From NCBI GenBank assembly GCA_043821285.1, contig JBDRCZ010000017.1, positions 15,947 to 79,946 on the forward strand: a DNA stretch of 64,000 bases. The letters are read 5' to 3'. The translations under genes were made by a program, and so were the position numbers. The notes beneath the pieces were generated by a model. That model had not been told where the DNA came from. It made no database searches and saw only the letters and a program-made list of their open reading frames with translations. Each line of letters begins with the position of its first letter. Positions within the stretch are counted from its first letter, which is position 1. Positions 1 to 40,446 of the stretch are shown one piece after another. Source of the stretch: Candidatus Omnitrophota bacterium (GTDB lineage Bacteria; Omnitrophota; Gorgyraeia; B26-G9; JBDRCZ01).

Positions 1-1
1 G

Positions 2-982
2 GATACCCTGAGGATACTTTCAAAAATACTTGCTCATTCACCCGTTCCCGTTGGAACCGTACCGATATACCAGTCCGCGGTAGCGATGAAACAAAAGAAA
101 AAAAAGATTATCGATATGACGGCAGAGGATATGATCGCAGCGGTAGAAACCCATGCCAAAATGGGTGTGGATTTTATGACCATTCATTGCGGTGTCATTC
201 AGGAAACAGTAGCGCGGCTTAAGGCGGAAGGCCGGATTTTAGATATTGTTAGCCGCGGCGGGTCATTTCTCCTGGAATGGATGGTCCATAACAAAAAGGA
301 AAATCCTTTCTACCGGTATTTTGATAAAATATTGCAGATTGCCAGCAGATATGACATGGTTTTAAGCTTAGGTGATGGATTAAGACCAGGGGCAATTATT
401 GATTCTACGGATCGGGCACAAATCCAGGAATTAATCATCTTGGGAGAACAGGCAAAAAAGGCGCAGGAACGCGGAATACAGGTAATTATTGAAGGTCCCG
501 GACACCTCCCGCTTTCTGATATTGAAGCGAACGTTTTGTTGGCAAAAAAGATTTGCCATGATGCACCTTTTTATGTTTTAGGACCGTTGGTTACGGATGT
601 TGCTTTAGGATACGATCATATCTGCGGAGCAATTGGGGGAGCAATTGCCGCAATGCACGGGGCAGATTTTTTATGTTACGTAACCCCATCCGAACACCTG
701 CATTTGCCAGATGCCGATGATGTAAAAGAGGGGGTAATTGCTTCACGGATTGCGGCGCATGCAGCAGATATTGCCAAGAATGTCCCTGGCGCCAAAGACT
801 GGGATTTAAAAATATCTTTAGCCCGCAGAAAGCGGGACTGGAAAACGCAGATAAAACTATCCCTTGACAAACAACGTGCAAAGAAATACCATAATAAGTC
901 TTCAGCCAGCCATACGGATGTATGTACGATGTGCGGGGAATATTGTTCGATAAAAATAGCCGAAAAGAATTTGCGGGGATAA
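2..982 (+). CDS. thiC: phosphomethylpyrimidine synthase ThiC, C-terminal part (5' end off window)
   Basis: Frame is open from base 2 (DTLRILSKILAHSPVPVGTVPIYQSAVA...) and joins the listed ORF. ThiC-like blocks VPVGTVPIYQ and IIEGPGH, and a C-terminal Cys cluster CTMCGEYCS. Confidence 0.85.
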   Translation, partial: DTLRILSKILAHSPVPVGTVPIYQSAVAMKQKKKKIIDMTAEDMIAAVETHAKMGVDFMTIHCGVIQETVARLKAEGRILDIVSRGGSFLLEWMVHNKKENPFYRYFDKILQIASRYDMVLSLGDGLRPGAIIDSTDRAQIQELIILGEQAKKAQERGIQVIIEGPGHLPLSDIEANVLLAKKICHDAPFYVLGPLVTDVALGYDHICGAIGGAIAAMHGADFLCYVTPSEHLHLPDADDVKEGVIASRIAAHAADIAKNVPGAKDWDLKISLARRKRDWKTQIKLSLDKQRAKKYHNKSSASHTDVCTMCGEYCSIKIAEKNLRG

Positions 983-1047
983 TTCAGGGGCAGAATGCAA
1001 GCTTCCCAAGCTTGACGTCGCGGGTTCGAATCCCGTTCCCCGCTCCA
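973..1047 (+). tRNA. tRNA-Gly (anticodon CCC)
   Basis: Hand-folded cloverleaf: acceptor GCGGGGA/TCCCCGC, D arm ATTC-AGGGGCA-GAAT, anticodon arm CAAGC-TTCCCAA-GCTTG, variable loop ACGTC, T arm GCGGG-TTCGAAT-CCCGT, discriminator T, encoded CCA. The first 10 nt overlap the thiC stop. Confidence 0.85.
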
Positions 1048-1121
1048 GTAAAGATAGTGTACAATGAACTATTTATAGTTTACAGCAGGAGAACCAGAAA
1101 AAATGGTTTTTAGGGAAAAAG

Positions 1122-1343
1122 ATGCCAATATATGAATTTGAATGTTTTAACTGTCATAAAGAATTTGAGCAGTTTTTTCATTCGGCAAATCAAGAGTTGA
1201 GCATACAGTGTTCTCATTGTAATTCAAGAAAAATTAAACGAATTTTTTCAATTTTTGGATTTAAATCAAAAGATAAAAGCTCTGGTAGTAATAGTTCAGG
1301 ATGCACGTCATGTACCACTGGTAATTGTAGTAGCTGTCAATAA
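1122..1343 (+). CDS. FmdB-family zinc-ribbon protein
   Basis: N-terminus MPIYEFECxNC plus a second CSHC pair (two CxxC knuckles); Ser/Cys-rich tail. Confidence 0.7.
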   Translation: MPIYEFECFNCHKEFEQFFHSANQELSIQCSHCNSRKIKRIFSIFGFKSKDKSSGSNSSGCTSCTTGNCSSCQ

Positions 1344-1408
1344 ATTATTGCCTTCAGCACTAATTTATTGACTACCTTTTCTTTTTCAAAGAAAAGAAAA
1401 AATAAAGT

Positions 1409-1562
1409 AACGGATTAACACTGATTAAACACAGACCTCGCCTATGCAGAGCTTCGGCGGGTATTTTGGGTAGTATTACTGTTAAGCAGGGGTCCATTAA
1501 AAATCCGTGCAACATCTGTGGCTAAAAAATATATGAAATTCACGCATTATTCAGAATAATCT
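1409..1562. repeat. CAC[ATG]GAT word array pair plus shared 30-nt block
   Basis: AACGGATTAACACTGATTAAACACAGAC (1409-1436) faces AAAATCCGTGCAACATCTGTGGC (1499-1523). AAATTCACGCATTATTCAGAATAATCT (1534-1562) matches 16468-16498. Confidence 0.65.
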
Positions 1563-1593
1563 CCTATAAAATTGTGGAAATCTGTGTATAAAT

Positions 1594-3228
1594 ATGTTTA
1601 GCGAGCCAGTTATAAAAGAAAAATTTTTCGGGCGCAAGCTGCTTCTGGACTTATTGAAAAAACGAATTGAGGCTTTTAAAAATGACTATCGCCAGAATGT
1701 TGCGCTGCTTGGACCGGAATTAATTGGTAAAACTTCCCTGGTATTAGAATTACTTAATCAACATAACGACAAGACGATTATTCCGGTTTATGTAGAGGTT
1801 AAATCAGAACCCCTGCAGTTTTTTGTGCAAAAATTCATTGGTGTCTTTTTAAACCGCTTTATCACCACGGTTGAACATCAATCTCCCGAAGATCTAAATT
1901 TGCTGATTAAAAAATGCCGCCAGCATGCCAGCAAAACTTATCTTGGAATTAAAGATGTTTTTTCCCATTTAGAAAATAATAATAATAATGAAGCCTTTGT
2001 TCGGTTACTGCAATTGCCGGTAATATTTTATGCCGAGACAAATAAACGCTGCCTGATTGCAATAGATGAGTTTCAGAATTTGGAAACTTTAAAAATCAAT
2101 AATCCATTTAAGGTCTTAAGTAATGCAATTATGATGCAAAAGACAACGATGTATATCATTACCAGCTCCTGGGAGGCAAAGGCCAGGCAAATATTGTCCG
2201 AAAAGCTTAGTCTGTTATTTGGAAATTTTGAAACCCTGCATATCACTTCATTTGATATGCCGACCAGTAAGTTTTTTTTGGATAAAAAACTTATGGATAT
2301 CGAAATGCAGGACCTGTGCAAGAAATTTTTATATAATTTAACCATGGGGAAACCATTTTATTTAGATTTGATTGTCGAACGTTTAAAACGCCTTTTTGCC
2401 GCAGATAAAACAAAAAAAATGACCAGAGAATTAATTATCGATGCATTAAATGATCTCTTGTTTGACCCGCGTGGCATATTACATCAGTACTTTGAACATC
2501 ATATCGGAACGTTTTTACAGAATCGTACGTACTGCACATTTTCTTTAATTTTAAATGCGCTTGCCGATGGACAAAAAAGGACAGCCGGTATTTCAAAATA
2601 TACCAATCGGCCGGTAAAAGACATCACACAACATCTCTCGCAATTGATCAATATGGAAATTGTTCAACGTAGCGGAAGCTTTAACCGCTTGCATGATCCG
2701 ATGTTGAAATTATGGCTGAAATATGTATATAAAACACGGCAACAGAATTATTCGACTAATCCACAGATGCTTTCTACCGCATTCAATATGGCGATTGATG
2801 ATAATTTTACCGCTTTTTGTGATACGGACCGTAAAAATTTAGGGGAAATTCTCTTGACACTTTTTGAATCTTTTGGCAATGAAATTGTAGAAATTGGCAA
2901 AAAAAGATTCAAATTGTCAAAATTTAAAAAAGTTGAATTAAAAAATCAATCGGGGTTCTGCTATATTATTGCTACTCCAGCCTCATCACAAAAACAATGG
3001 ATCTGCCTCTTGGAAAATAAACTGATTACGGAACAGGATATTATCGATTTTAGTCAATATCTGCGTAATGCTAAACTGCGCCCAATACGCAAGATTATTG
3101 TTACAATTCGCACGTTGGATGTTAATGCAAAACTGAAAGCATTAGAAGATAAGTTTATAATCTGGGAAATTGAAACTTTGAATTCGCTTTTGGATTTATA
3201 CAGCCGATGCGGCGTTGTTAGGTGGTAA
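1594..3228 (+). CDS. AAA-type ATP-binding protein (archaeal-ATPase-like, C-terminal extension)
   Basis: Walker A-like GPELIGKTS and Walker B-like CLIAIDEFQ in a 544-aa ORF. The family call is tentative. Confidence 0.55.
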   Translation: MFSEPVIKEKFFGRKLLLDLLKKRIEAFKNDYRQNVALLGPELIGKTSLVLELLNQHNDKTIIPVYVEVKSEPLQFFVQKFIGVFLNRFITTVEHQSPEDLNLLIKKCRQHASKTYLGIKDVFSHLENNNNNEAFVRLLQLPVIFYAETNKRCLIAIDEFQNLETLKINNPFKVLSNAIMMQKTTMYIITSSWEAKARQILSEKLSLLFGNFETLHITSFDMPTSKFFLDKKLMDIEMQDLCKKFLYNLTMGKPFYLDLIVERLKRLFAADKTKKMTRELIIDALNDLLFDPRGILHQYFEHHIGTFLQNRTYCTFSLILNALADGQKRTAGISKYTNRPVKDITQHLSQLINMEIVQRSGSFNRLHDPMLKLWLKYVYKTRQQNYSTNPQMLSTAFNMAIDDNFTAFCDTDRKNLGEILLTLFESFGNEIVEIGKKRFKLSKFKKVELKNQSGFCYIIATPASSQKQWICLLENKLITEQDIIDFSQYLRNAKLRPIRKIIVTIRTLDVNAKLKALEDKFIIWEIETLNSLLDLYSRCGVVRW

Positions 3229-3229
3229 A

Positions 3230-3718
3230 ATGAAAATTGGTATTTTATCGGATACACACATACATCTGCCAAAAGATAAAATCCCGGCAGCTTTAATTGA
3301 TGGACTAAAAAACGTTGATTTAATTTTGCATGCGGGTGATATATTGGATTTGGCGGTGATTAGAAAATTAGAAAAAATTGCCCAGGTTAAAGCAGTACAG
3401 GGAAATATGGATACCCCAGTGCTTAAAGAGATATTGCCGGAGAGAGAATTAATACGCGCGGAACAGATTAAAATCGGGTTAATCCACGGCTGGGGGCCGC
3501 CGGTCGGCCTATTAGATCGGGTAAAAGAGCTGTTTTATACAATGAAGGTGGATGTAGTTATATTTGGACATTCACATACCCCGATGATAAAAAAAATAGA
3601 TGGAGTTTTGTTTATAAACCCGGGCAGCCCGACAGATAAAATTTTTGCCCCTTACAATTCATATGTTGTTTTAGAGGTCAAAGGGAATAAAGCAGAAGCG
3701 CAGATTGTTAAGATATAA
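3230..3718 (+). CDS. YfcE/MJ0936-family metallophosphoesterase
   Basis: Motifs ILSDTH, HAGD, GNMD, GHSHTP. ATG 3230 is preceded by AGGTGG and starts 1 nt after the upstream stop (the track ORF begins at 3215). Confidence 0.8.
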   Translation: MKIGILSDTHIHLPKDKIPAALIDGLKNVDLILHAGDILDLAVIRKLEKIAQVKAVQGNMDTPVLKEILPERELIRAEQIKIGLIHGWGPPVGLLDRVKELFYTMKVDVVIFGHSHTPMIKKIDGVLFINPGSPTDKIFAPYNSYVVLEVKGNKAEAQIVKI

Positions 3719-3832
3719 CAACAATTAACAGTTTACGGTTTACAGTGAGATCGTGATGCGTAACTGTTGGCCAGGCAGAAATAAGTTATAACTTATAGGT
3801 AGTGTCAAAAATAAAATGAAAAACCGGAAAGC

Positions 3833-3904
3833 AACCACAGATTACGCAGATAGTTATAAAGATTTTAAGAGGGGAGAAAATCTGTGGTGAATGGATCAGT
3901 GGTG
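3833..3904. repeat. CCACAGAT-type word array, inverted pair
   Basis: Forward words AACCACAGATTACGCAGAT (3833-3851) face reverse words AAAATCTGTGGTGAATGGATCAGTGGTG (3877-3904). Confidence 0.6.
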
Positions 3905-4103
3905 AAAGAAAGAGAAAAAGATTTTCCATATTCAAGGAGATAATATACAAGATAATTGGTGCGGCAATGGAAGTCCACAAGTAGTTAGGATGTGGAATTC
4001 TTGAAGCAGTAGATGAAGAAGGAGTAAGTAGAGAATTTAGAAGAAAATGATTATTATTTAACATAGGTAGAGTTTCTTTAGAATATAAGAGAGTAATAAG
4101 GTA
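3904..4103 (+). pseudogene. GxxExxY-family (PD-(D/E)XK-like) gene remnant
   Basis: Translation ...FKEIIYKIIGAAMEVHK*LGCGILEAVDEEGVSREFRRK*LLFNIGRVSLEYKRVIR* follows the N-terminal pattern of GxxExxY proteins (xIIGAAxEVHxxLGxGxLExVY-like). It has two in-frame stops and is truncated. Confidence 0.5.
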
Positions 4104-4117
4104 GAAAATACACTTAT

Positions 4118-4196
4118 AACCACAGATTAAATCACCACAGATTTATACAAATAATTTAAAAGAATAAAATCATTTTAATCTGTGAAATCTGTGGTT
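4118..4196. repeat. CCACAGAT-type word array, inverted pair
   Basis: AACCACAGATTAAATCACCACAGATT (4118-4143) faces AATCTGTGAAATCTGTGGTT (4177-4196). Confidence 0.65.
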
Positions 4197-4257
4197 GCTT
4201 TAAAAGATATACGAAAGATTTTTGACAGAACCAACTTATAAACAAGGGGTAGTCGTA

Positions 4258-5079
4258 ATGAATATAAATGGTAACATCCCGGTATTTTTGGTTCAGGGTG
4301 AGACTCTCCCTGAAGTTTGGGAGCGCGCGGTTATTAAAATCTGGGAAAATGGGGTTGATATTAAAACAGAATATGATAAAAAAGACGATCCGCCAAGTAA
4401 AGATGCAACAATGACAATGGTTGTCAATCAACCTTTTTCCGAGCCAAGAATTCACCGTGCGTTTCCCGCAGGGCTGGAGGACCTTGAAATTTACAAGCAA
4501 GAGGTCGTCTATGGCGTTCATGACCATTGGATAAATCCAGAAGAAGGTAAATGGACATATACCTACCATAAACGTTTATTTGAATATGAAATCGAGCAGG
4601 AAATAATCAGACAAATAGATTATATTATTAAAAAATTATCACAAAACGGCTATTCCCGCCGTGCACAAGCAATAACATGGAATCCAAAACTTGACCCGCA
4701 GACTGATGATCCTCCGTGTCTGCAGAGAATTTGGTGCCGGCTTATGACCAATAGCGATGGAAAAAAGGTATTGAACATGAACACCCATTGGCGAAGCCGA
4801 GATGCGTATAAAGCAGCATTTATGAATATTTTTGCCTTGACGGAACTGCAGAAGCTGATTGCCGATAGAATATCCGAAATATTAAAATTCGAAGTTATTG
4901 TTGGCCGCTATGTAGATATAAGCGATAGTTTTCATATCTATGGTTCTTATTATCAGGAATTTCAGAAATTTTTAAATCTTGTTAAAAACCGAACATTTGC
5001 CGAGCGCACCTGGACGACGGAATTTGCCCAGAGTTTTTTTGACGAAGCTGACAAAAAACTACATGATCGTGCGGTGTAG
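4258..5079 (+). CDS. thyA: thymidylate synthase (ThyA) family protein, divergent/archaeal-like
   Basis: Collinear with ThyA core blocks: SRRAQAITWNP, PPCLQRIW (catalytic Cys context), HWRSRDAYKAAFMNI, DSFHIYGS. ATG 4258 is preceded by AAGGGG; the track start TTG 4222 is possible. Confidence 0.7.
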   Translation: MNINGNIPVFLVQGETLPEVWERAVIKIWENGVDIKTEYDKKDDPPSKDATMTMVVNQPFSEPRIHRAFPAGLEDLEIYKQEVVYGVHDHWINPEEGKWTYTYHKRLFEYEIEQEIIRQIDYIIKKLSQNGYSRRAQAITWNPKLDPQTDDPPCLQRIWCRLMTNSDGKKVLNMNTHWRSRDAYKAAFMNIFALTELQKLIADRISEILKFEVIVGRYVDISDSFHIYGSYYQEFQKFLNLVKNRTFAERTWTTEFAQSFFDEADKKLHDRAV

Positions 5080-5112
5080 AACATCAAAAATAATAAAAAA
5101 GAAAAAGATAAT

Positions 5113-5201
5113 GCCACAGATTTTCACTGATTGAACACGGATAAAAAACAAAAGACAAATATTAAATAAAAATCCGTGTTTCATTCGTGTGAATCCGTGG
5201 C
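5113..5201. repeat. CAC[ATG]GAT word array, imperfect 30-nt palindrome arms
   Basis: GCCACAGATTTTCACTGATTGAACACGGAT (5113-5142) versus ATCCGTGTTTCATTCGTGTGAATCCGTGGC (5172-5201). 22 of 30 positions are complementary by hand count; words are phased 10-11 nt. Confidence 0.7.
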
Positions 5202-5313
5202 TAAAAAAATAGTTAAACTACGCGTAACACAAATTAACACGAACAGCAAAGGCTTTATTCTTAAAAGGGTAGGTAATTTTTGACAGAACTTGCTGTCACA
5301 GCGGAGAAGATAC

Positions 5314-5796
5314 GTGGATAGGCTTTGGGCACCATGGCGGATAGCTTATGTTAACAAAAGGGTAAAGAGAAAATGCATATTTTGTATAGAAGCTAAAAAG
5401 ATAAATCTTAGAAAAAACTATATTGTTGAAACAGGCAGGTACAGTTTTGTGATTTTGAATATTTTTCCCTATAACAATGGACATTTGATGATTGTACCAT
5501 ACCGGCACTTGCCTGACGTCTCTATACTGAGAACTGAAGAGTGGAATGAAATGTTAAAATTTATTAAAATATATAAATCTTATCTCTCAAAAATACTTAA
5601 TCCCGACGGCTATAATCTGGGTATAAACATTGGACGCGCGGCTGGGGCCGGTTTTGCCAACCATGTGCATTTACATATTGTTCCGCGCTGGATCGGGGAT
5701 AGTAATTTTATGCCCGCGATAACAAAGACTAAGATAATCTCTCAGTCACTCGATGAATTGTATAAGCAGTTAAAAAAATGGCAGAAAAAGAAGTAA
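5314..5796 (+). CDS. HIT-family (histidine triad) nucleotide hydrolase/transferase
   Basis: Histidine triad [10 protein letters not shown] and an N-terminal LWAPWR block. GTG 5314 is preceded by GGAGA; a longer ORF from TTG 5290 is possible. Confidence 0.75.
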
Positions 5797-7322
5797 TATT
5801 AATTCTTGATTTTGGCTCTCAATATACCCAGTTAATTGCCAGACGCGTGCGGGAACTGGATGTTTATTCAGAGGTCTTACCGGCAAATGCCGCATTTAAT
5901 CTTATAAAAAAACATAATCCTTGCGGGATAATCCTCTCTGGCGGACCGGCTAGTGTTTATAAAGATTGTGCGCCAGAGTGCCATAAGGAGATCCTGCACT
6001 TAGGAATTCCGATTTTAGGCATCTGTTATGGCATGCAGTTAATCGTAAAATTTTTTGGCGGGCAAGTAATATCAGGACATAAACGGGAATATGGGCCAGC
6101 CAAACTCAAAATTATAGATAAAACGGATTTGTTTTATAAAATTGATACAACAATAAGCTGCTGGATGAGTCATGGTGACCGGGTCAATACTTTACCGGAT
6201 GATTTTAAGGCGCTTGCTTACACGGATAATTCTCGATATGCAGCAATTGCTAATAAAAGGCTTAATATTTACGGCGTACAGTTTCATCCGGAGGTTGTCC
6301 ATACCCCCTGTGGAAAAAAAATTATTCATAATTTTTTATATAAAATCTGCAGCTGTCAAGGTGCATGGTCAGTAACATCTTTTATTAAGGAAAAAATAAA
6401 AGAAATTAAATCAACCGTAAAAAACTCAAAAGTTATCCTGGGATTAAGCGGCGGAGTCGATTCCGCGGTTGCGGCAGTATTAATCCATCAGGCGATTGGC
6501 CGACAGTTAACCTGCATCTTTGTCGATAATGGACTGTTAAGACTTGGCGAGCTGAAAAAGGTTAAGGAAACATTTACCAGAAATTTTAATATAAATTTGC
6601 ATTGTCTGGATGCCCGCAGGCAGTTTTTGAAGAAACTTGCCGGGATTACTGATCCGGAACAAAAACGGAAAATAATTGGTAAGCTGTTTATCCGCGTATT
6701 TGAACAGGAAGCAAGAAAAACCGGCAACATCGAATACCTTGCCCAGGGCACGTTATATCCGGATGTCATCGAGAGCCGTTCCGTGTTTGGCGGACCGACC
6801 GCTAAAATAAAATCCCATCATAATGTCGGCGGGCTTCCGGAAAAGATGCATTTAAAATTGCTGGAACCGTTTAAATTTTTGTTTAAAGACGAAGTACGGC
6901 AAGTCGGTAAAAAAATGGGACTGGCTGCGGAAATTATCTCCCGTCAGCCGTTCCCCGGTCCGGGGCTAGCCGTTAGAATTATTGGTGCGGTAACTGAAAA
7001 TAGACTCGATATTTTGCGAAAGGCAGACCGGTGTGTGCTCGAAGAGATAAAAGCCAGTGGCCTTTATCAGCAGATATGGCAGGCATTTGCCGTGCTCTTA
7101 CCAATAAAAACAGTCGGGGTAATGGGCGATGAACGTACATATGAGAATGTTATTGCATTAAGGGCCGTTACCAGTTTAGATGGGATGACCGCAGACTGGG
7201 CAAGATTACCGTATAATGTCCTGGAAAAGATTTCCAATCGTATTATCAATGAAGTTAAAGGTGTTAACCGGGTAGTATACGACATTAGCACAAAACCACC
7301 GGCAACGATTGAGTGGGAATAA
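5778..7322 (+). CDS. guaA: GMP synthase (glutamine-hydrolysing)
   Basis: GATase block [18 protein letters not shown]...CYGMQ, ATP-PPase SGGVDS, conserved C-terminus ...PPATIEWE. Overlaps the HIT gene by 19 nt. Confidence 0.95.
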
Positions 7323-7331
7323 GTAATAAAA

Positions 7332-7361
7332 AGTATTGCGTATCGAGCATTGCGTATTGCG
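7332..7361. repeat. heptad array TATTGCG/TATCGAG/CATTGCG/TATTGCG
   Basis: Four consecutive 7-mers, the reverse complement of the array at 7479-7522. Confidence 0.7.
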
Positions 7362-7478
7362 TTTCTTTAAGATAAGAATTTTAATTTTTTTGCTTTTACT
7401 GTTAGCTGCTTGCCCCCAGGATAGGGGTAAACTGAACAGCATGCTCTGTACCCTTTGCTTTATGCTTTGCGTTTTATT

Positions 7479-7522
7479 CGCAATACTCAATACTCAATAC
7501 TCAATACTTAATACGCGATACG
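7479..7522. repeat. heptad tandem array CGCAATA-(CTCAATA)x3-CTTAATA-CGCGATA
   Basis: Six consecutive 7-mers read directly from the sequence. The array ends 6 nt before the dnaE ATG. Confidence 0.8.
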
Positions 7523-7528
7523 AAAAAA

Positions 7529-10500
7529 ATGAAGCATTCCGATTTTGTGCACTTACATGTGCATACACAATATAGTCTTTTAGATGGGGCCTGTATGATC
7601 GATAATTTGGTCGATCAGGCTTATCAGCTGAAAATGCCGGCCTTAGCCATGACCGACCATGGTAACATGTTTGGCACAATTGAGTTCTATCAAGCCGCAA
7701 TGAATAAAGGGGTAAAACCAATAATTGGATGTGAGGTATATATTGCACCGGAAAGCCGTTTAAAAAAAACATCCAAGGCCGGGCGGGATACCGCATATCA
7801 TTTATTACTCTTAGCTAAAGATGAACAGGGATACAAGAATTTAATGAAGCTTGTATCAATTGGTTATCTTGAAGGATTTTATTATAAACCGAGAATAGAT
7901 AAAGAAATCCTGGGAAAATATGCCAAAGGTTTGATTGGTCTGAGCAGCTGCCTTAAAGGAGAAATTCCGGTGTTGATTGCCTCCGGATTAATTGAACAGG
8001 CAAAAAAAACAACCGCAGAATTTATTGATATTTTTGGTAAAGACGATTTTTATTTAGAGCTGCAGGATTCCGGCATCACTCAGCAAAGAACGGTTAACCG
8101 GCACTTACTCGAATTTGCCAGACAATTTGAAATTTTACCCGTTGCTACAAACGATGTGCATTATTTACTTAAAGAGCATGCGCAGGCACATGAAATATTG
8201 TTATGTATCCAGACACAAACAACATTAGCTGATCCCGGTCATATGCGTTTTCAAACCGAAGAGTTTTATCTTAAAAATCCTCAAGAAATGCATAGTTTAT
8301 TTTCGGATGTCCCGCAAGCGCTGAGAAATACCTTGGCGATAACAGAAAAATGCAATTTAGAACTGGATTTTAGCAAAGTTTATTTGCCGAAATATAAGGT
8401 TCCCGACGGAAAAAAACCAGAGATTTATTTATCGGAGTTATGCCACCACAATTTAAAAACACGCTATCCGGAGCCTACGGAGATTATCTGTAACCGCCTA
8501 ATGCATGAATTAAAAGTAATCAAAGATTTAGGTTATGCCAGCTATTTTCTTATTGTTTGGGATTTTATAAATTTTGCAAAACAAAAATCTATCCCTGTCG
8601 GGCCGGGCCGGGGGTCGGCCGCCGGAAGTATCGTTAGCTATCTCTTAGGGATCACGGATATTGATCCTTTAAAATATGACCTATTATTTGAGAGATTTTT
8701 AAATCCCGAAAGAATCAGTTTACCAGATATTGATATTGATTTTTGTTACGAAAGACGGGAAGAGGTTATTAAATACGTTACCGAGGTGTATGGAAAGGAA
8801 AATGTTGCGCAGATAATTACTTTTGGCACGATGGCCGCTAAAGGGGTAATCCGTGATGTTGCCCGGGTTATGGGACTACCCTACGTAGATGCCGACCGTA
8901 TTGCTAAACTTGTTCCTTATGATATCAATATTACCTTGCAGGATGCAATTAATAATGTTTCTGAACTAACAAATTTATATAAAACAGACCCAACCATAAG
9001 ACAACTTTTGGATACATCTTTATCACTTGAAGGGCTTACGCGTCATGCCTCAACGCATGCGGCGGGGGTGGTGATTAGCAGTGATCGTTTGACCGAGCAC
9101 GTGCCATTGTTTAAGCCTAATGACGCGGGCCAAATTTCCACAGGATATCCCATGGGGGCACTTGAAAAAATAGGCCTTTTAAAAATGGATTTTTTGGGGC
9201 TTAAAACTTTAACCGTTATTGATCAAACACTCAAAATTTTAAAACGTACCGGTAATCTTGAGTTAATAATAGAACATATCCCCCCGGATGATAAAAAGAC
9301 ATATCAGATGCTCTCTGAGGGGAATTCCACCGGAGTATTTCAGCTTGAGAGTTCCGGGATGAGGGAAATATTACGGAAGTTAAGGCCAGAAATGTTTGAG
9401 GATTTAATTGCCATATTAGCGTTATATCGGCCGGGACCTTTAGGCAGCGGAATGGTTGATGATTTTATAAAACGTAAACATAATAAGACAAAAATAAAAT
9501 ATGATCACAAACTGCTGGAACCTATTTTAAAAGATACATATGGGATTATTATTTATCAGGAACAGGTGATGCGGATCGTAAATATTTTAGCCGGGTTTAC
9601 CCTCTCGCAGGCAGATACCATCCGCCGGGCAATGAGCAAGAAAATACCGGAGGTTATCGATCAGCTTCGTAATTCTTTTATCGAGGGTGCAGTAAAAAGA
9701 AATATTAATAAACGGATTGCAGAAAAGATATTTAATTTGATTGAATATTTTGCCGGTTATGGTTTTAATAAAAGTCATTCTGCCGCTTATGCGCAAATAT
9801 CATATTATACGGCCTATTTAAAGGCAAATTACCCGGTTGAATTTATGGCCGCATTGCTGACCAGTGAAAAAGATAATACCGATAAGATTGCTTTGTATAT
9901 TGATGAATTGAAAAGAATGAATATAAAAATCTTGCCGCCTGATATAAACGAAAGTTTTGGTAAATTTACCGTAGTTGGCGGCGCAATAAGATTTGGACTT
10001 TCCGCGGTAAAAAATGTTGGCATCGTTGCGGTCGATGCAATCGTGCGTTCGCGTATTGAGAAAGGTGCGTTTACATCACTTTATGATTTTTCTGAGCGAG
10101 TTGATTTGAGAACGGTTAACCGAAAAGTTATTGAGAGTCTGATAAAATGCGGCGCTTTTGATAGCTTTAAAAAATCAAGGGCATGTCTAATAACATCTAT
10201 CGATAATGCACTGGAAGTGGCGACTTCCATGCAGAAAGATAAACAAAATGGACAATTGACCTTTATCGATAACTTCGGGTATAGTTTATTTAATAAAAAA
10301 GAGAATGACAATATCGAGGTTAAGGAATGGCCGCAAGGTCAGCTGCTTTCGTTCGAAAAGGAGATGCTCGGATTATATATCACCGGACATCCCTTAGCAC
10401 AATATGCCAAGATCTTAAGCAAATTTAATCATTGTTCTTTAAAAAATATTGCCGAATTCAATAATAATGACGTTATGCTTGGCGGTTTAATTGTAAAAGT

Positions 10501-10969
10501 TAAGTTTACGGTGACAAAAAGAAAACAGGAAAAAATGGCAGTAATTAAACTGGAAAATCTTGACGGAGCTATCGAAGTAGTGATTTTTCCGGAAACGTTT
10601 AAAAAGGTACAAAATAATGTTCGTGCAGACGCAATAGTATTTGTTAAAGGTAACGTAAACGTTCAGGAGGGATTACGTCCGAAAATCATTGCCCGTGATT
10701 TAATTCCGCTGGAAGATGTATCTTCTTCTCTTACTCAGTCAATAAGTTTACAGGTCGACCGGATAAACCATGAGGAATGTTTAATAAAAATAAAAAACAT
10801 TGTTAGAAATCATCCGGGAAAAGTACCCCTTTATTTAAATTTCAACAGTAGTGTACGCACCCCAACACAAATACTTACGGGAATGAAAGTTAAACCGACG
10901 GAAAAGCTGCTCAATGAGTTAGAAGACCTCATCGGAGCAGATAATATAAAATTCGAGCTCTCTCAATAA
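7529..10969 (+). CDS. dnaE: DNA polymerase III alpha subunit
   Basis: PHP domain FVHLHVHTQYSLLDGA, polymerase core GPGRGSAAGS and LPDIDIDF, 1146 aa. Confidence 0.95.
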   Translation: MKHSDFVHLHVHTQYSLLDGACMIDNLVDQAYQLKMPALAMTDHGNMFGTIEFYQAAMNKGVKPIIGCEVYIAPESRLKKTSKAGRDTAYHLLLLAKDEQGYKNLMKLVSIGYLEGFYYKPRIDKEILGKYAKGLIGLSSCLKGEIPVLIASGLIEQAKKTTAEFIDIFGKDDFYLELQDSGITQQRTVNRHLLEFARQFEILPVATNDVHYLLKEHAQAHEILLCIQTQTTLADPGHMRFQTEEFYLKNPQEMHSLFSDVPQALRNTLAITEKCNLELDFSKVYLPKYKVPDGKKPEIYLSELCHHNLKTRYPEPTEIICNRLMHELKVIKDLGYASYFLIVWDFINFAKQKSIPVGPGRGSAAGSIVSYLLGITDIDPLKYDLLFERFLNPERISLPDIDIDFCYERREEVIKYVTEVYGKENVAQIITFGTMAAKGVIRDVARVMGLPYVDADRIAKLVPYDINITLQDAINNVSELTNLYKTDPTIRQLLDTSLSLEGLTRHASTHAAGVVISSDRLTEHVPLFKPNDAGQISTGYPMGALEKIGLLKMDFLGLKTLTVIDQTLKILKRTGNLELIIEHIPPDDKKTYQMLSEGNSTGVFQLESSGMREILRKLRPEMFEDLIAILALYRPGPLGSGMVDDFIKRKHNKTKIKYDHKLLEPILKDTYGIIIYQEQVMRIVNILAGFTLSQADTIRRAMSKKIPEVIDQLRNSFIEGAVKRNINKRIAEKIFNLIEYFAGYGFNKSHSAAYAQISYYTAYLKANYPVEFMAALLTSEKDNTDKIALYIDELKRMNIKILPPDINESFGKFTVVGGAIRFGLSAVKNVGIVAVDAIVRSRIEKGAFTSLYDFSERVDLRTVNRKVIESLIKCGAFDSFKKSRACLITSIDNALEVATSMQKDKQNGQLTFIDNFGYSLFNKKENDNIEVKEWPQGQLLSFEKEMLGLYITGHPLAQYAKILSKFNHCSLKNIAEFNNNDVMLGGLIVKVKFTVTKRKQEKMAVIKLENLDGAIEVVIFPETFKKVQNNVRADAIVFVKGNVNVQEGLRPKIIARDLIPLEDVSSSLTQSISLQVDRINHEECLIKIKNIVRNHPGKVPLYLNFNSSVRTPTQILTGMKVKPTEKLLNELEDLIGADNIKFELSQ

Positions 10970-29508: not shown

Positions 29509-29628
29509 TCCCCCCTTTGTACATGGTTTATTAGATTTTAACAGGATTAGAGGTGATTGTCAAGGATATATCGTGAAAAAGTAAGAAAAATCGTATTGTG
29601 TATTGAGTATTGTGGTTAAGAAATCTAT

Positions 29629-29832: not shown

Positions 29833-32820
29833 TTATATTGCTTGCTCTATAAATGTCAGGTTTTGGAATTGCGGTTTTGGAATTGCTGTTGTACTAGGGG
29901 GAAAATTAGGAAGTGGTGGATATCCAAAAAATTCTCTGGCAGTTGGATTTTGAATAGATTCAAAAGTAATCATACTTGGTGTCCCTCTATAAGTAGCTAT
30001 TTCTCCATTTAATTTTATTGTATTTTCATTATAATCATATGTAACAATTACCTGCAGTCTCTTACCTCTCTCTCCGCTTCTTGTGAGAACTAAGACGACA
30101 TTTAGTTCTGTAATTCTGCTTTGCATGGTATAAACTTGTATGCTTCCAATACTTTCAGGTATTTTAAGCTCTTTACTCCCAATTTTTTTACTCTCACTTA
30201 TAACTTCTTCTTCAATAATCTCTAAGCCTTCTGGCGCGTGAATTTCTCGTATCGCTTTCATCACTTCTTGCTTTAAATCTGGTGACAAATTTTGTACTAC
30301 TTCACTATTTTCTATAAATCTTATTTCCCTTGGATCAGTCCTCCGGCGTTCTTTGCCTTTTTTATCATCAAGTTCAAGAAATAGATATCCCCCGGTCGCG
30401 GAATTCCACGAAATCCTTGTTTGACCTTTATCATTGGCAGAAAAATTAATAGTAACATAGTTATTCGGACTGATTGTTAATATTGTTCCTTCACCAAATG
30501 ACGCGTGTTTCACCGTATCCCCTGCCCGCAATAGTGTTCCGTCAGGCAAAATAAGAGTAGGTCGAGCTAAGTTATTAATTACACTTCGTAACGCTATTTG
30601 TAGGTTTCCCTGGGAATTATTTTCAATATCAGGATAATTTTCAAAAAAGTCGTTTTGTGCCTTTTGTATTGCATTATAATGGCCTAATACTGAACAAATA
30701 GCTCCGTGATAGATGTATTCCTGGCGAATTAATGGATTATCCTGTTCACAAATTTGCCTTGATAACACTAAAGCCGGTTCAGGAAATAATTCGTTAAATT
30801 TCGCCTCACCTAAAATATTAATAATCTCTTGTTTTGTTTCTTCTGCATGTGAATAGAATTCAAGCACATAATCATCTTCTTGATTAAACACAACAGCATC
30901 AGTTACAATAATGCGTAATGGTATCTCACTTCCTGCAGTAGTATGCAAATACTTCCTTATTCTTTGTTCTATTTGTTCTATATCTTGCTTAAGATCATCA
31001 GTTTCATCGCGATACTGCCTATGGGAAAGATTATAGAGCATTTGTTTAAACGCACGGTCACCTTTGCGGATAAAGCCGCCTTCATTGTCTGTCGGATTAT
31101 TTTCTTTTGATCCTTCTCCTAATTCAGGAAGAAGGTGATATTGTTCAATTATTGCGGCTATTTCTTCAGGGTCATTTAGATTTCTGTTCCTAATTTTTTC
31201 ATAAACATCCGAATGCCAATTATCAATAGCATCACCTATAGCCTCATTTGACAACTCGCTACCTTGCGTTCGGGTAACTAAAAACATATACGATAATAAT
31301 GATAGTTTCATAGAATTTGGCAGAGTAGGTTCTTTGAGCATTTCTAATGGGGGTAACATACGGTTTTCTAAAACAGTTTTTACTTGTTCTGGAAAATCCT
31401 TCATAATAATAGGCCACAGCTTTAAAAAATTAACCAATGCTTCTTGATTTATTCTTTCAGGTGGAAACGCCTGGGAGTTTTTTTCAACTATTCTTTCTAT
31501 AAAATACAAAACTGCTCTGAGAGAGAAAATTTCTATGTTTGCATTTTGCGGAATTTCAACAGAAGAATTAACCCGTTCTCCATTAACAAGAATTATTGAT
31601 TTTTCAAAAGATAAGTCGTTTGCCTGGTATGTGGCTGAAATATAAGTAAGTAGTTCTGCTACAGTACTGCCTTTAGCAGGAATTCTAATTAATTCGTCAT
31701 TCCTACTGCCAATAAGTGAAGCAGAGATTCCTATTGTGTAAGGTAAAAGACAAACACTTATCCTTTCTTGATAAATTTGGCGTGTCTGTTTAGTTATAAT
31801 TATAGGTTTGCCAGCATTATCCCTTACTTCTACCCTACCCTCGTGTACGGCATGAAGAAGATTAAGAAAATCATCTGTGCTTTTAATTAAATTTTTATCT
31901 TTAGAAGCTAAATCATTCATAAGGCTAAGGGCATTAAGAAGATTTGCCCTATCATAAAGAGGAATCAAGCCTTCATTAATGCAGCGCTCGAGGTCTTCTG
32001 GTGTTTGAATAAATCTTGTATTAACATGAATCTCAAGTATCTTTTTAAGCGGGGCCCCGAGCGGTTCGTATTTACCAAAGATAAAGTTAAGCCCGCTTAT
32101 ATTATACATAGGAATATTCTTTGATATTCTAACTAAAGCATTACCGTATCCAATAAGACAGATTTTGGTCTCTTCAAAATCTTCTCTAGCGATTAAATCC
32201 TGAACCTGTATTAACCCCCTAAGCACCGCCTCTCTCCGAATATCTTGAATGTGTACTATTTCCTCGCGGATTTGCCGCATCGATCCTATCTTGCGCAAAA
32301 TTTGAGTTAATATTTTGGTATAAATTATAAAATGTAATAATTGGTCATCAGCTTCAACAATACCTTGTTTTTCCATTAAATACTGGATTAAAAATGCCCC
32401 ATGTTCAAACACATACTTGTCTTCATCAGAAACGCTATAAAATCTAACCAACCATTTATTAAGCGAACGCTTAAAAGACGATAAGGTATCAAAGCGTTGT
32501 ATAACATTTTTTGTTGCTAACAGGGCACTAAAGATAAGATTATGGATAATGTGACTAATGCCAGTTCTCTTGTTTTCTTGTAAAAGTTTATCAGCATCGA
32601 CTATTATTTTAGCTTCAGCAGATTCTTTTGCTAAAGTATCCGTTGCTTCGCCAGGATCACTAATATCTTTTGCAAAAATATCGCTATTTATGCTTAAGGG
32701 AGGGGCAAGATGGGTGTGTAGGCCTTTTAAATTGTTGCCGGCGGCCCAGGAGAGGTCGAGGCAGAAAAAAGCGTTAATTAGCATAATAACTGTTAGTTTA
32801 AACCAAATACTGCGTTTCAT
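29833..32820 (-). CDS. giant-family protein G1 (995 aa), function unknown
   Basis: N-terminus MKRSIWFKLTVIMLINAFFCLDLSWAAGNNLKGLHTHLAPPL; C-terminus ...NLTFIEQAI. Internal beta-grasp-like ILVNGERVNSSVEIPQNANIEIF and Tudor/UvrD-C-like AGDTVKHASFGEGTILTI. Confidence 0.8.
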   Translation of the reverse strand: MKRSIWFKLTVIMLINAFFCLDLSWAAGNNLKGLHTHLAPPLSINSDIFAKDISDPGEATDTLAKESAEAKIIVDADKLLQENKRTGISHIIHNLIFSALLATKNVIQRFDTLSSFKRSLNKWLVRFYSVSDEDKYVFEHGAFLIQYLMEKQGIVEADDQLLHFIIYTKILTQILRKIGSMRQIREEIVHIQDIRREAVLRGLIQVQDLIAREDFEETKICLIGYGNALVRISKNIPMYNISGLNFIFGKYEPLGAPLKKILEIHVNTRFIQTPEDLERCINEGLIPLYDRANLLNALSLMNDLASKDKNLIKSTDDFLNLLHAVHEGRVEVRDNAGKPIIITKQTRQIYQERISVCLLPYTIGISASLIGSRNDELIRIPAKGSTVAELLTYISATYQANDLSFEKSIILVNGERVNSSVEIPQNANIEIFSLRAVLYFIERIVEKNSQAFPPERINQEALVNFLKLWPIIMKDFPEQVKTVLENRMLPPLEMLKEPTLPNSMKLSLLSYMFLVTRTQGSELSNEAIGDAIDNWHSDVYEKIRNRNLNDPEEIAAIIEQYHLLPELGEGSKENNPTDNEGGFIRKGDRAFKQMLYNLSHRQYRDETDDLKQDIEQIEQRIRKYLHTTAGSEIPLRIIVTDAVVFNQEDDYVLEFYSHAEETKQEIINILGEAKFNELFPEPALVLSRQICEQDNPLIRQEYIYHGAICSVLGHYNAIQKAQNDFFENYPDIENNSQGNLQIALRSVINNLARPTLILPDGTLLRAGDTVKHASFGEGTILTISPNNYVTINFSANDKGQTRISWNSATGGYLFLELDDKKGKERRRTDPREIRFIENSEVVQNLSPDLKQEVMKAIREIHAPEGLEIIEEEVISESKKIGSKELKIPESIGSIQVYTMQSRITELNVVLVLTRSGERGKRLQVIVTYDYNENTIKLNGEIATYRGTPSMITFESIQNPTAREFFGYPPLPNFPPSTTAIPKPQFQNLTFIEQAI

Positions 32821-33140
32821 ATTACATATATGCTTTCATTCTCGTATTGAGTATCGCGTATTAATGTTTTAAATTCGAAATCCGAATATCTAAATGTTTA
32901 GAATTTGCCATTCGTCATTATAAGTGTTTTATTTTATCTATCTAGTTGATCCTGTCTAATTCGTTCTCGTATTGCGTTTTTTTATTGTCGTCTACTTGTT
33001 TTTATACTCAATACTCGATACACAATACACAATGCGTTGTTTAATCATTTCTCTCCGTGTTCTCTGCGGCTCTGTGTGATAAATTTTAGCTTTTATTTTC
33101 TGTCTTCTGAATTCTGATTTCTGTTTTCTGCTGTTAACTG

Positions 33141-36100
33141 TTAGATTGCTTGCTCTGCTATAAATATATTAGGTACTGTTATTTCTCCGGCACTTGGTAT
33201 ATCTTCAAGTAATGTGTCCGGTGCAAATACATTTTCATTAGCAGGATTGGCTCTTGTGGCTATATCTTTAGCGTTTATAACACGTTGTGAGCGTCTGTCC
33301 TTATGAGCACTAGTGTCATTCGTTTCCTTTTGTAATTTTGCAAGAAGAACCGGATTATCTTTTATTTCACGGTGATTTTTGACGTTGGGAAAAAAACCTG
33401 TTGTCAGTTTTCTTGCGGCGGTTAAATCATCAACAGTTTGAATAATCATTCCTAATTCACCATTTAAATCTTCGCTATGAACAACACCAGCTTCTAATCT
33501 TACCTGCATGCCTAATTCTGAAATCACTTCATTAACTTTGATTTCGATCGCTTTCAAAGTAGCGGCAATTTTTTCCGAAGTAATTATCCCATCATCTTCT
33601 CTATAAGCTCCTGCAAATTGATTATAAACATTGTTATTAATTGATAGAATTACATCATTTCCAACATTGTGGCCAAATACATCATTAATAACCTTAAATC
33701 CAAAATGCAATTGTGCAAATTGTGCATCTCCATTTAAGTCTGTTTCTCTGTAAAACTCTCTGTTGCCGCTTGCTCTTATGAAATCATTTATATTTATGGA
33801 TGTAGAACTAACTATATAATGTGCTGATAGTTTTATCAGTTGTACACGGTTATTTTCTCTTTTTATAACGAGGTAGAACTTATCAGGCCGTTCATGTACA
33901 ATACTGATTGAAACAGCAGATTTGCCGTCTAAAATGTTTTGAATGGTTTTGCCCAACTTATCTCTTTCTATTACCGGGTAAAACTTGTCTAAATCTTCTT
34001 TCGAAATACCCGCATCTATCATTTCCTGACGTATTCTTTCTCCTTCAACTCCTAATTGAAATTTTTTATCGTCAGCTATTTTAATCGGTGATTTTCTCTC
34101 TTCGCGCTCAGGATCTGGGCGTTCGGATAATCCTATTCCTACTAACTTGTTGGCATATTTAGTCCTGCGCTGGGTGTATTCCGCCTCATCTCTAGCAATT
34201 CTTAGTTGTTCCAATAGACTCATTTGGGAAATATTAGGTATATCACTTATTTTTACTGCTCCTACCGGGGCAAAGGGAACATAAACAGGAAAATAAATCT
34301 TACCATTAATATCAATGTCAAGACATTTAAGATTAGCGAGTATCTCGGATAGAACAGTGTTTTCATCCTCTTCTACATCTTTAGTGAACAGTATAAATGT
34401 TTCCTTAGAAGCCTTTTCTTCTTCTGGCGTTAAAAATACTGATTTTGTGACCGTAGTAATGTTTCTTTTTTTATTTTCTCTTAATTTTTCTATCAACGCA
34501 TCTCTGTTACTATCATTTATATTTTTTAGGATTGCAAAAACGTATTTTCCTTCAATCCGTTCTATGACCTTGCGTTGAATTTGTACGAGAAAGTGCTCAA
34601 TAACTTCTTTTGGCAACATAGGTGGTAACAAACCAACAACCTCATCACCACTAACATGATAAACTGTTCTACCTCTTTCTTCAATTTCTTTACGAGCTGC
34701 CTCAATTAATGTGTTAATTGCAAGTATATTCACATTTTCCCAGCCATATACATCATTTCTACCCCTTAGTTCGCTGATGTCAAAGAATATCACCCAAGCA
34801 TTGTCGTCGTGTCTACCTAAAAATACCACTGCTTCTTTTTCCCATTTTTGTGCATTTTCTGGATAGGCTTCATTAAGAAAGTTTCTTACGCGTGTTGTAT
34901 TATCAAATAAAGTGGTTAAATACATTATAAACTCTTGCAGTTCGTTATAGGGTTCGTCAGTATCTTTTCTACTTAAAAGAACATCTATCACCTTAGTAGC
35001 CGCGTCCCTAAATTGCTGATCATTAATATTTTGGTTAATAATTTTTCTCCACTTCTCACCTAAACGCTTTATTTCAGCCTTCAGAAACATTTCTATTGCT
35101 TCCTCATCTTCGCCTTGTTCTTTACACCTATCTACTTCTAATATTACTTTTTCTACATCTGCGCCCAACTCAAAAGCAAAAAATTCCCCATCTCGTTCCT
35201 GACTGGAATTTTCTCTTGGCAAAATGCTTGCCATACCTAAGCTAAATGCTGCGATTAAACCTGCGGTTCCTCCTCCCATCCCTGATTGAAGCATTGATGC
35301 TGCGGAAAATTCTGGTTGAGATGGGAAATAACCAAGTGCTCGCATTAATGTTCCAATAGATGCTGCTAAAAGCACGATGGATATTTTAGGTTTATTTCCA
35401 AACCATGCAACTAACCTCCTAATTAGCGTACCTAACCTGTTCTCATGGGAAGGACTTTTGTTTAATGCCCTCCAACCAGTTGGATGCATAAATGCTACAT
35501 TAGTTGCTTTGCGTCTACGATGAAGAAGTCCGCTTATATTTGCAGGAAATATTATTTTTCTGCTTATCCACTTTTTTACCTCATAAGCAATATATATTAA
35601 TGTTAAAATTATGCCCAAACCAGGTATTACCATACAATCGCTAATAAAATTATTCCACTGTTTAACACGAGCATAACCTTCTCTTACAGTAAAACTATCA
35701 ATAAAAAACTCTTCTCCCATCGGTGGCATGATACCAAACTTAGCAATAAAATCTGCCTGGTTTTTAAATGCTTCTGTTGTTTCTGGATTGATATCAAAAA
35801 AAGGAATAACTAATCGAGCAATGTTAAAAATCAACGTTACTGGGTTATGTTTTATAAGAAATTCCATTGGGTTTTTAGGCAAATTATCGACATGATGACT
35901 TAAACGCACTAATGTAACAGCGTATTCAAAAATTCCTCGCTTAGTAAAGAAATTTAATCCAATATTAGGATTACCCCATGTTCCATTCCATCTTGAACCA
36001 TAGACAATATCAAAATTGCTTTCACGGATAGGTGGATTATTTGTCATAAGAATTTGGTAAGTTTCGGGAGAAACTAATTTTATCAAAAATAGCGCTGGTC

Positions 36101-40421: not shown

Positions 40422-40446
40422 AAAAAATTGCCATAGGCAATTTTTT
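40422..40446 (-). terminator. terminator hairpin after G3
   Basis: Minus strand reads AAAAAATTGCC-TAT-GGCAATTTTTT then AGTTTACC. Overlaps the stop codon by 2 nt. Confidence 0.55.

Follow-up and report, generated by a model that had tools for sequence, protein, structure and literature searches.

How does a spacer of 206 nucleotides (nt), bracketed by facing arrays of a 7-nt unit, come to separate two neighbouring genes, and could such arrays serve the genes between which they lie? The question is raised by the guaA-dnaE junction in a 64,000-nt stretch of an Omnitrophota metagenome-assembled genome (MAG), which was analysed at its full length and is referred to here as the window. The identities of guaA (GMP synthase; 5778-7322, plus strand; Pfam GATase and GMP_synt_C) and dnaE (DNA polymerase III alpha; 7529-10969, plus strand; Pfam PHP, DNA_pol3_alpha and related domains) were confirmed by scanning the open reading frames (ORFs) of the window against Pfam. 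The spacer between them is delimited by two tandem arrays of the heptad TATTGMG, one in this orientation (G-form) and one as its reverse complement CKCAATA (C-form). The left (5') arm (7334-7361, plus strand) starts 11 nt after the guaA stop codon and consists of four units in the G/T-rich form (TATTGCG TATCGAG CATTGCG TATTGCG). The right (3') arm (7479-7520, plus strand) comprises six units in the A/C-rich form (CGCAATA (CTCAATA)x3 CTTAATA CGCGATA); it is G-poor, has no start codons within it and ends 8 nt before the dnaE ATG (7529). Tandem Repeats Finder reported period 7 at 7333-7362 and 7481-7514, and in-phase parsing of the units concurs. Both arms had been given with exactly these sequences and coordinates in an earlier reading made without database searches (hereafter the sequence-only reading). 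Its core of about 115 nt measures 117 nt (7362-7478, plus strand), and the 6 nt that it placed between right arm and ATG are reached only by counting a partial unit, CG. The same reading remarked on the lack of a Shine-Dalgarno sequence at dnaE. None is recognisable (duplex energy with the anti-Shine-Dalgarno +0.1 kcal/mol), but this is not unusual here, as about half of the window genes are likewise without one, and we rejected it as a special trait of dnaE.

The core has no significant repeat in the window by blastn and is unique there save for one copy of a dispersed module. This module, CTGCCTGCCTCCC-GTTA-GGGAGG-TAAACT, was noticed by reading the sequence; it stands at 40394-40421, 47827-47855 and 59895-59921, with a diverged copy in the guaA-dnaE core (7405-7433), always on the plus strand and flanked by GTAAACN heptads.

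The junction was compared with that of two related Omnitrophota species, represented by three contigs (L177, L178 and L179). The window and the relatives have in common the gene order ATPase, Metallophos, (ThyA), HIT, GuaA, DnaE, PilZ/T2SSE, 161-aa protein, HU and HisRS. In the relatives the guaA-dnaE gap is 1 nt (GGGAATAAtATG) or 7 nt, and no period-7 arrays were found in their three loci; the 206-nt spacer is therefore a derived, lineage-specific insertion or expansion. It is well supported that about 195 nt have been added to an ancestrally tight guaA-dnaE junction, in the form of a G/T-rich array, a unique core and a complementary A/C-rich array. Other junctions of this gene block are inflated as well, that after dnaE, for example, measuring 351 nt in the window and 18 to 22 nt in the relatives. 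The GuaA protein is 100% identical to one from a 'Candidatus Omnitrophota' MAG at NCBI; it forms a cluster with a single member, and its next relative is only 67% identical.

Repetition at period 7 is a property of the non-coding DNA of the window as a whole. A pattern of two TATTGMG units with up to two mismatches matched 20 times where 2.17 matches were expected, and none of 100 shuffles reached 20. All true TATTGMG arrays are intergenic, the few two-unit matches within genes being degenerate chance hits. The sequence-only reading had asked whether the heptads might be equally frequent inside coding DNA; they are not, as single units occur at 1.49 per kb in non-coding and 0.48 per kb in coding DNA, a ratio of about three. 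Matches of 4-mers at lag 7 number 23.5 per 1000 positions in non-coding DNA versus 5.2 in coding DNA, while lags 5, 6, 8, 10 and 11 give 8 to 12 per 1000 in non-coding DNA and echoes appear at lags 14 and 21. A neutral array finder detected five period-7 arrays in the window, all non-coding, and none of period 4, 5, 8, 10 or 11. Other heptad units are present in the window spacers, namely TTCTGNN (33098-33130 and elsewhere), GTAAACN (55264-55286 and beside the 3' ends of the giant genes described below) and AATGACG. As the period-7 signal is non-coding and several unit families are present, the window arrays are heptanucleotide simple-sequence repeats of the STRR or long simple-sequence repeat (LSSR) type, an assignment that is well supported.

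Heptad arrays in other genomes

We scanned one genome per GTDB species for three consecutive TATTGMG units and obtained at least 120 loci; the census figures that follow refer to those listed. Genes in these genomes were called with simple ORF rules, which are more reliable in loci of 45% GC or less. By a tally of record titles, the matches listed were from Bacteroidota (about 44), Chloroflexota (about 30), Planctomycetota (9), Ignavibacteria (6), Kiritimatiellota (5), Omnitrophota, cyanobacteria and Rhodothermota/Balneolota (4 each) and Proteobacteria (3), with no Firmicutes. Isolates carry the arrays too: Aequorivita nionensis, with a complete chromosome (NZ_CP130281.1), Calothrix NIES-4105 and Pontiella sulfatireligans F21. 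Period 7 accounts for 223 arrays in the 120 listed loci, about 108 of them made of other units, whereas periods 5, 6 and 8 give 14 to 21.

The placement of the arrays relative to genes follows clear rules. Among C-form arrays 30 of 52 lay within 30 nt before a start codon, as against 4 of 37 G-form arrays (p = 6e-6), while the G-form was favored within 30 nt after a stop codon (34/49 versus 12/60 for the C-form, p = 2e-7). In loci of 45% GC or less, the ratio of C-form to G-form before starts was 27:1, and that of G-form to C-form after stops 17:6. In these 27 low-GC loci, (CKCAATA)n is followed after a median of 12 nt (range -3 to 27), usually A-rich, by ATG, and mostly there is no Shine-Dalgarno sequence. 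For example, 'CGCAATACGCAATA ctaaaaaa ATG' at locus L068 parallels 'CGCGATA cgaaaaaa ATG' in the window. Where two arrays form a close inverted pair, the G-form preceded the C-form in 13 of 13 cases and was never reversed (binomial p = 2e-4), and arms of one unit family face each other far beyond chance. In the typical pair, 0 to 15 nt separate the stop codon from the 5' arm, and beyond the loop and the 3' arm another 10 to 50 nt lead to the start codon. The guaA-dnaE pair, with its 11 nt and 8 nt, obeys the rules of orientation and chirality.

The same architecture is built from other units in two further operons. In the Chloroflexia bacterium SMAG_U3384 (locus L113, positions 1-8000), Pfam identified an S10 ribosomal-protein operon, and eight of the spacers between its cistrons hold one inverted heptad pair each. 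Four unit families are used (AATTTTG, GATTTTA, CGTATTG and CAGTGGT), in every pair the G/T-rich arm is the 5' one, and a Shine-Dalgarno sequence follows the 3' arm. These arrays lie inside the polycistronic mRNA of essential genes and therefore cannot be obligatory terminators. The second is the sdhA-sdhB junction of Flavobacteriia (loci L027, L037, L112 and L180-L259). In Aquimarina, Joostella and Mesoflavibacter, a (CTCAATA)3 array at this junction is identical at 21 of 21 positions and the loop varies; a degenerate G-form arm follows the stop codon. A metagenome scan with SdhB provided 68 readable junctions, of which 38 were compact (30 nt or less, many of 1 to 16 nt) and 27 expanded (50 nt or more). 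Folding of 26 distinct spacers of the expanded kind gave a median z of -2.4, about nine of them with z above -1. Many of the 26 are strong hairpins of lineage-specific heptads, such as TTGATGG/CAACAAC, CAGGTAA/TTACCTG, CTGAGTC/GACTCAA and AGTCAAA/GACTTTC. Across 29 expanded spacers, among them the two of the window, G and T are enriched in the 5' half and A and C in the 3' half, and start-codon triplets number 2.1 per 100 nt in the 3' half versus 5.5 in the 5' half (all p < 0.005).

Two other Omnitrophota MAGs deserve mention. One (L088, 2517-2600) has (TATTGAG)x4 immediately behind a probable stop codon, with degenerate CGCAATA units beyond a 16-nt loop, and so shows the architecture of the guaA-dnaE pair in another member of the phylum. 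In the other (MAG020, L120), a pair of paralogous ORFs carries (CGCAATA)3 or (CGAAATA)2CGCAATA within the 5' end (5135-5155 and 6712-6732); the proteins start MKKSRNT(K/Q)YAI and continue into a hydrophobic signal-like segment. These 21-nt arrays keep the frame and one unit more or fewer would shift it; the two ORFs are candidate phase-variable genes.

Further arrays and giant-gene leaders in the window

The remaining arrays lie on the minus strand, in or near a block of six very large ORFs of 995 to 2363 amino acids (aa) at 29833-63891, the giant genes. Pfam was run on three of them: those of 995 aa and 2146 aa had no match above the curated cut-off, and that of 1241 aa contains a methyltransferase domain. 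A second inverted pair occupies the spacer 32821-33140 between the genes of 2146 aa and 995 aa, and its sense layout matches that of the guaA-dnaE spacer. The stop codon of the 2146-aa gene is followed after 106 nt by a G-form 5' arm of four units (33034-33007), then by about 141 nt, a C-form 3' arm of two to three units (32865-32845), 24 nt and the ATG of the 995-aa gene. In-phase parsing of at least two units delimits the array at the 995-aa gene as 32845-32858. The two spacers align in their arms only, the cores have no similarity to one another, and neither core repeats within the 64-kb window.

Four other arrays stand alone. Three C-form units (29594-29614, minus strand) lie 85 nt upstream of the start of an HNOB gene, with a promoter-like site (TTGACA-17-TAAAAT, 11/12 matches, 29563->29535) about 31 nt downstream of them. 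The leader of the 2146-aa gene contains about five G-form units (39844-39878, minus strand) some 263 nt upstream of its ATG, in which two good pairs (39844-39857 and 39865-39878) flank one degenerate unit. The leader of the 1241-aa gene holds two G-form arrays on the minus strand, one of two to three units (59392-59405) and one of four (59464-59491). The array at 39844-39878 is paralogous to that at 59392-59405 and about 15 nt, or about two units, longer; both lie in a paralogous leader block and hence are not independent. In these two long leaders the G-form arrays stand 260 to 455 nt upstream of the start codon and break the placement rule, which the C-form arrays facing the starts of dnaE (8 nt) and the 995-aa gene (24 nt) follow. 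All of these sites had been pointed out in the sequence-only reading and are real, but its statement that the heptads recur in every giant-gene spacer does not hold: TATTGMG arrays are present in four of the seven spacers adjoining giant genes and absent from three (47537-47877, 53554-53921 and 54987-55310). Nor can the role that it proposed to be common to dnaE and the giant-gene leaders be shown, because the arrays sit 8 to 24 nt from a start codon, about 31 nt upstream of a promoter-like site or, in the opposite (G) form, 260 to 455 nt upstream of a start.

Several other features of the giant-gene leaders were observed. An exact 10-mer, TAGACAGGAT, occurs on the minus strand in four of them (32949-32958, 39770-39779, 53695-53704 and 59290-59299), 138 to 263 nt upstream of the ATGs, and in three of the four a G-form heptad array lies 48 to 93 nt upstream of it; the 10-mer may serve these genes in common, in regulation or as part of a promoter. 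The genes of 2146 aa and 1241 aa have in their paralogous leaders a conserved promoter-like TTGAAA-16-TATACT with a TG before it (extended -10) (40082->40055 and about 59590-59560, minus strand). Its positions imply 5' untranslated regions (UTRs) of about 465 to 520 nt, and downstream of it the G-form leader arrays would probably lie within these long 5' UTRs. A hairpin conserved in the leaders, GCCTGTC(C)GCCGGTTTGATAGGCGG, lies about 35 nt ahead of the giant-gene start codons (39615-39639 and 59071-59094, minus strand). At the stop codons of four giant genes, an A-run, a TTGCC-loop-GGCAA hairpin and a T-run follow one another (40422-40446, 47856-47880, 55289-55313 and 59937-59961), a form that suggests a bidirectional terminator; a simple scan made no call there.

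Elsewhere in the window, the spacers 4120-4196 and 5113-5201 are also inflated and contain inverted arrays of a 9 to 11-nt unit (CCACAGATT.../...AATCTGTGG, and CACGGAT/ATCCGTG). In these the A/C-rich arm precedes the other, the reverse of the chirality of the heptad pairs. At about 25.4 kb the gene orientation flips from plus to minus and the cumulative GC skew peaks; this point is either a candidate replication terminus or just the boundary of convergent gene blocks.

A possible stem in the mRNA and its alternatives

What could the arrays do at the guaA-dnaE junction? The sequence-only reading had suggested long hairpins, and as a potential structure the hairpin is supported: in each of the two spacers with an inverted pair, the arms are base-paired in the minimum-energy as well as the centroid RNA fold, and in other genomes arms of the same family face each other beyond chance. 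The guaA-dnaE spacer is predicted to fold at -51.7 kcal/mol (z = -2.6) on the sense strand and at -63.7 kcal/mol (z = -5.9) on the antisense strand. A known Rfam RNA family was ruled out, since covariance models matched nothing in the window beyond a tRNA at the gathering threshold; in the region 7250-7600 there was no match at E <= 1. Scanning of the guaA-dnaE spacer revealed no promoter-like or terminator-like site on the sense strand, and a terminator scan of 7200-7650 and 32700-33250 returned no terminator-like site.

The placement rules are defined relative to the translation start and are valid for unrelated units. From this we infer that the arrays would affect the mRNA through their composition and structure and not as a specific binding site. 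The element would act in cis on the mRNA and would need no dedicated sequence-specific factor. Its A/C-rich arm, G-poor and free of start codons, would provide a leader for dnaE, itself without a Shine-Dalgarno sequence. The two arms would zip into a long imperfect stem and loop out the insert, leaving the guaA stop codon 11 nt on its 5' side and the dnaE start codon 8 nt on its 3' side. Such an approach of stop and start could keep or tune the translational coupling of genes that ancestrally abutted. As both arms are tandem 7-mers, the stem would tolerate shifts of register and slippage: it could pair in several registers, and slippage during replication could lengthen or shorten it by 7 nt at a time with complementarity kept. 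We regard the joint explanation, that the arrays are heptanucleotide repeats and that they work through a cis-acting RNA stem, as evenly balanced between being right and being wrong.

A number of observations weigh against this explanation. The duplex of the guaA-dnaE arms is stronger on the antisense strand (-34.0 versus -25.5 kcal/mol on the sense strand), where the variant units form G-U pairs; in the sense RNA they give C-A mismatches. In the sdhA-sdhB set the sense strand had no G-U advantage (sense versus antisense 12 versus 14, p = 0.35), so that these folds do not establish selection for an RNA stem. A palindrome that originated at the level of DNA would explain the symmetry of the arms equally well. 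That both arms are present on one RNA is an assumption. The core may carry a dnaE promoter, and the second inverted pair has a promoter-like site between its arms. Four of the nine window arrays are not near a start codon, and three of these four have the 'wrong' form (G) for the gene that lies far downstream. Neither the array at the HNOB gene nor those in the long leaders suit a role as translational leader; they are best regarded as additional members of the repeat family, for which other effects are possible. Finally, TATTGMG formed 13 stretches in viral contigs, where two shuffled heptads formed 27 and 16. As the control heptads are equally common in these contigs, to which the comparison was confined, it is the arrangement of the arrays, and not their raw count, that is informative.

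The main rival is a functionless self-propagating repeat, whose palindromes would arise, spread and be homogenised at the level of DNA, by slippage and template switching or through an unknown enzyme, and would be tolerated at junctions. The orientation rules would then record the removal of harmful insertions, those that place TTG, GTG, ATG or G-rich sequence before a start, and a start-codon-poor 3' half is the outcome expected of purifying selection alone. Closely related lineages with compact junctions are apparently unharmed, there is no G-U asymmetry in favor of the sense RNA, and TATTGMG does not outnumber shuffled heptads in viral contigs. Against it, (CTCAATA)3 is identical at 21 of 21 positions at sdhA-sdhB of three genera beside a variable loop, hairpins stand at eight junctions of one essential ribosomal-protein operon, and the stems regularly start within about 15 nt of the stop codon and reach to just short of the ribosome-binding region. 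We consider this rival possible but doubtful. A related view takes the arrays for a transposon-like insertion, a miniature inverted-repeat transposable element (MITE) with heptad arrays as its terminal inverted repeats, which would account for an insertion relative to related genomes with inverted repeats at its borders. The arms are unequal (four versus six units), loops elsewhere are as short as 6 to 12 nt, and the flanks (...ATAAAAAG | ... | CGAAAAAAATG) share A-runs only, with no clear target-site duplication. The cores of the two pairs are moreover unrelated and do not recur, which excludes a MITE with a conserved body within the 64 kb and makes the idea highly improbable overall. That the arrays were created by assembly is scarcely credible. 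In other MAGs they are often found at contig ends, which points to disturbed assembly; those of the window, however, are imperfect, have unique sequence around them and occupy interior positions of a 64-kb window on a larger contig, the longest contig of the GuaA cluster measuring 85,997 bp, and the arrays are not artefacts because isolate genomes carry them, including the complete chromosome NZ_CP130281.1.

The other rivals grant the arrays a function of a different kind. A platform for a sequence-specific factor, be it a DNA regulator of iteron-like or SARP-like type or an RNA-binding protein (S1, Csp or CsrA), would fit the presence of the TATTGMG unit in five window spacers and at least 120 genomes of several phyla, the RNA-binding proteins proposed for TAACTGA repeats (MacGregor 2015, PMC4679880) and the altered reporter output after deletion of a Nostoc heptamer (bioRxiv 10.1101/2022.06.06.494920). 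It is nonetheless unlikely, with unrelated units at the same junction across lineages and even within one operon, no candidate protein gene linked to the arrays, and array positions that vary within the window. The iteron-like platform of the sequence-only reading fares no better, given that one junction has different heptads by lineage, orientation tracks start codons and no replication gene is nearby. Phase variation, in which slippage alters the number of units and switches the downstream gene, is suggested by arrays in the leaders of giant, possibly surface-exposed proteins, by the difference of about two units (about 15 nt) between paralogous leaders and by (CGCAATA)3 inside the 5' end of two signal-peptide ORFs in another Omnitrophota MAG. 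Such a contingency locus is very unlikely here: arrays as short (two to six units) and imperfect as these would slip rarely, dnaE is an unlikely on/off target, and three genera have the same number of units at sdhA-sdhB. A transcription terminator or insulator, which might also act on antisense transcripts entering from dnaE, draws on the very stable antisense fold and on the U-rich run CUUUUUAUUACUU that follows it. The scan, however, found no terminator-like site on either strand, and equivalent hairpins stand between the cistrons of ribosomal-protein and sdh operons, which need read-through. Intrinsic terminators have a short GC-rich stem, a loop of 3 to 8 nt and then a U-run on the transcribed strand. 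Such a terminator was rejected, there being no scan call, an A-run instead of a U-run after the sense stem and a 117-nt loop enclosed by it; a role as terminator or insulator is highly improbable.

A cis-acting stem at guaA-dnaE, the explanation that we prefer, can be widened. Inverted heptad arrays may be a general, cross-phylum element of operon junctions that has yet to be described as a class, exemplified by guaA-dnaE, the Chloroflexia S10 operon and Flavobacteriia sdhA-sdhB. A process at the level of DNA would repeatedly place palindromes of 7-nt units between a stop codon and the start codon after it, one chirality would survive, that with the A/C-rich arm beside the start, and the zipper-like stem would keep or tune coupling. 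This generalization is tentative and rather unlikely as it stands. If it were true, junctions that occur naturally in both a compact and an expanded form could offer a way to learn what heptanucleotide repeats do. Both states of sdhA-sdhB are found in cultivable Flavobacteriia, in which mRNA processing and protein ratio are directly measurable. Should the stems prove to be without effect, the arrays still document widespread growth of intergenic DNA inside operons.

Relation to known repeats

Among described systems the TAACTGA repeats are the closest case, a placement that is well supported; these heptamer direct repeats occur in marine Beggiatoaceae, cyanobacteria and some Bacteroidetes, and a translational role and RNA-binding proteins have been proposed for them, with no established function (MacGregor 2015, PMC4679880). 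The likeness is extensive: a 7-nt unit in tandem sets of two to six with variant units interspersed, almost all sets intergenic, a patchy distribution across phyla, one orientation that faces a start codon a few nt downstream, usually without a ribosome-binding site, and a position before essential genes, ribosomal-protein operons included (PMC4679880). The two differ in the unit, which is TATTGMG/CKCAATA in the window, and in their hosts, Omnitrophota not being among those reported for TAACTGA (PMC4679880). They also differ in layout, as a Beggiatoa genome has 169 direct sets and one inverted repeat (PMC4679880), whereas here an inverted pair defines the spacer. Similar in kind are the cyanobacterial STRR and 7-nt LSSR repeats (Mrazek 2007, as summarised in PMC4679880) and the Nostoc TTTTGAA/TTCAAAA repeats near start codons or promoters, deletion of which altered reporter output (bioRxiv 10.1101/2022.06.06.494920). 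They too are intergenic heptad arrays near starts or promoters, with several unit families per genome, and the Nostoc unit TTCAAAA is also among the hairpin units of the Chloroflexia operon. As far as we found, those reports present direct arrays only, and neither a layout of stop, arm, loop, arm and start nor a fixed chirality. With the unit TATTGMG/CKCAATA, the window arrays do not belong to the named unit families STRR1-3, TAACTGA or TTCAAAA.

Iterons measure about 17 to 22 bp and adjoin a rep gene or an origin, and the heptads bound by SARP regulators are spaced 11 nt at the -35 region. Several short direct repeats could, in iterons and SARP sites as in the window, align multiple protein protomers, but neither set of properties holds for the window arrays; iterons were rejected on the 7-nt unit, the inverted arrays and the flanking genes guaA and dnaE. 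SARP regulators are reported to bind heptameric direct repeats (PMC5930380). In the leaders of Haemophilus influenzae hmw1A and hmw2A, heptanucleotide repeats are described as acting through 5'-UTR RNA structure and RNase III (PMC8262952, PMC12721329). The likeness lies in a tandem repeat of 7 nt ahead of a gene for a very large surface protein, within its leader, but those arrays are long, homogeneous and hypervariable between isolates, and the window arrays are short and imperfect.

REPs are single imperfect palindromes of 20 to 40 nt with a GTAG or CGTC tag, mobilised by RAYT transposases. REP, BIME and REPIN elements resemble the window arrays in being genome-specific, hairpin-forming repeats of intergenic or intercistronic DNA that are co-transcribed and can affect the mRNA stability or translation of their neighbours (PMC3116915, PMC3733652). 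The window arms are tandem 7-mers without a tag, and we rejected membership; no RAYT gene was seen in the window, to which the search was confined.

A literature search for TATTGMG in any rotation brought up unrelated matches only and no described bacterial repeat; one for heptad hairpins at operon junctions, incomplete in its coverage and thus no proof of novelty, surfaced only the TAACTGA paper. As far as found, the class to which the window arrays belong is known, that of intergenic heptanucleotide repeats with no established function, and the unit, the phylum and the inverted-pair architecture are new. In summary, the guaA-dnaE spacer adds to these repeats the phylum Omnitrophota, the unit TATTGMG and an architecture that can be tested.

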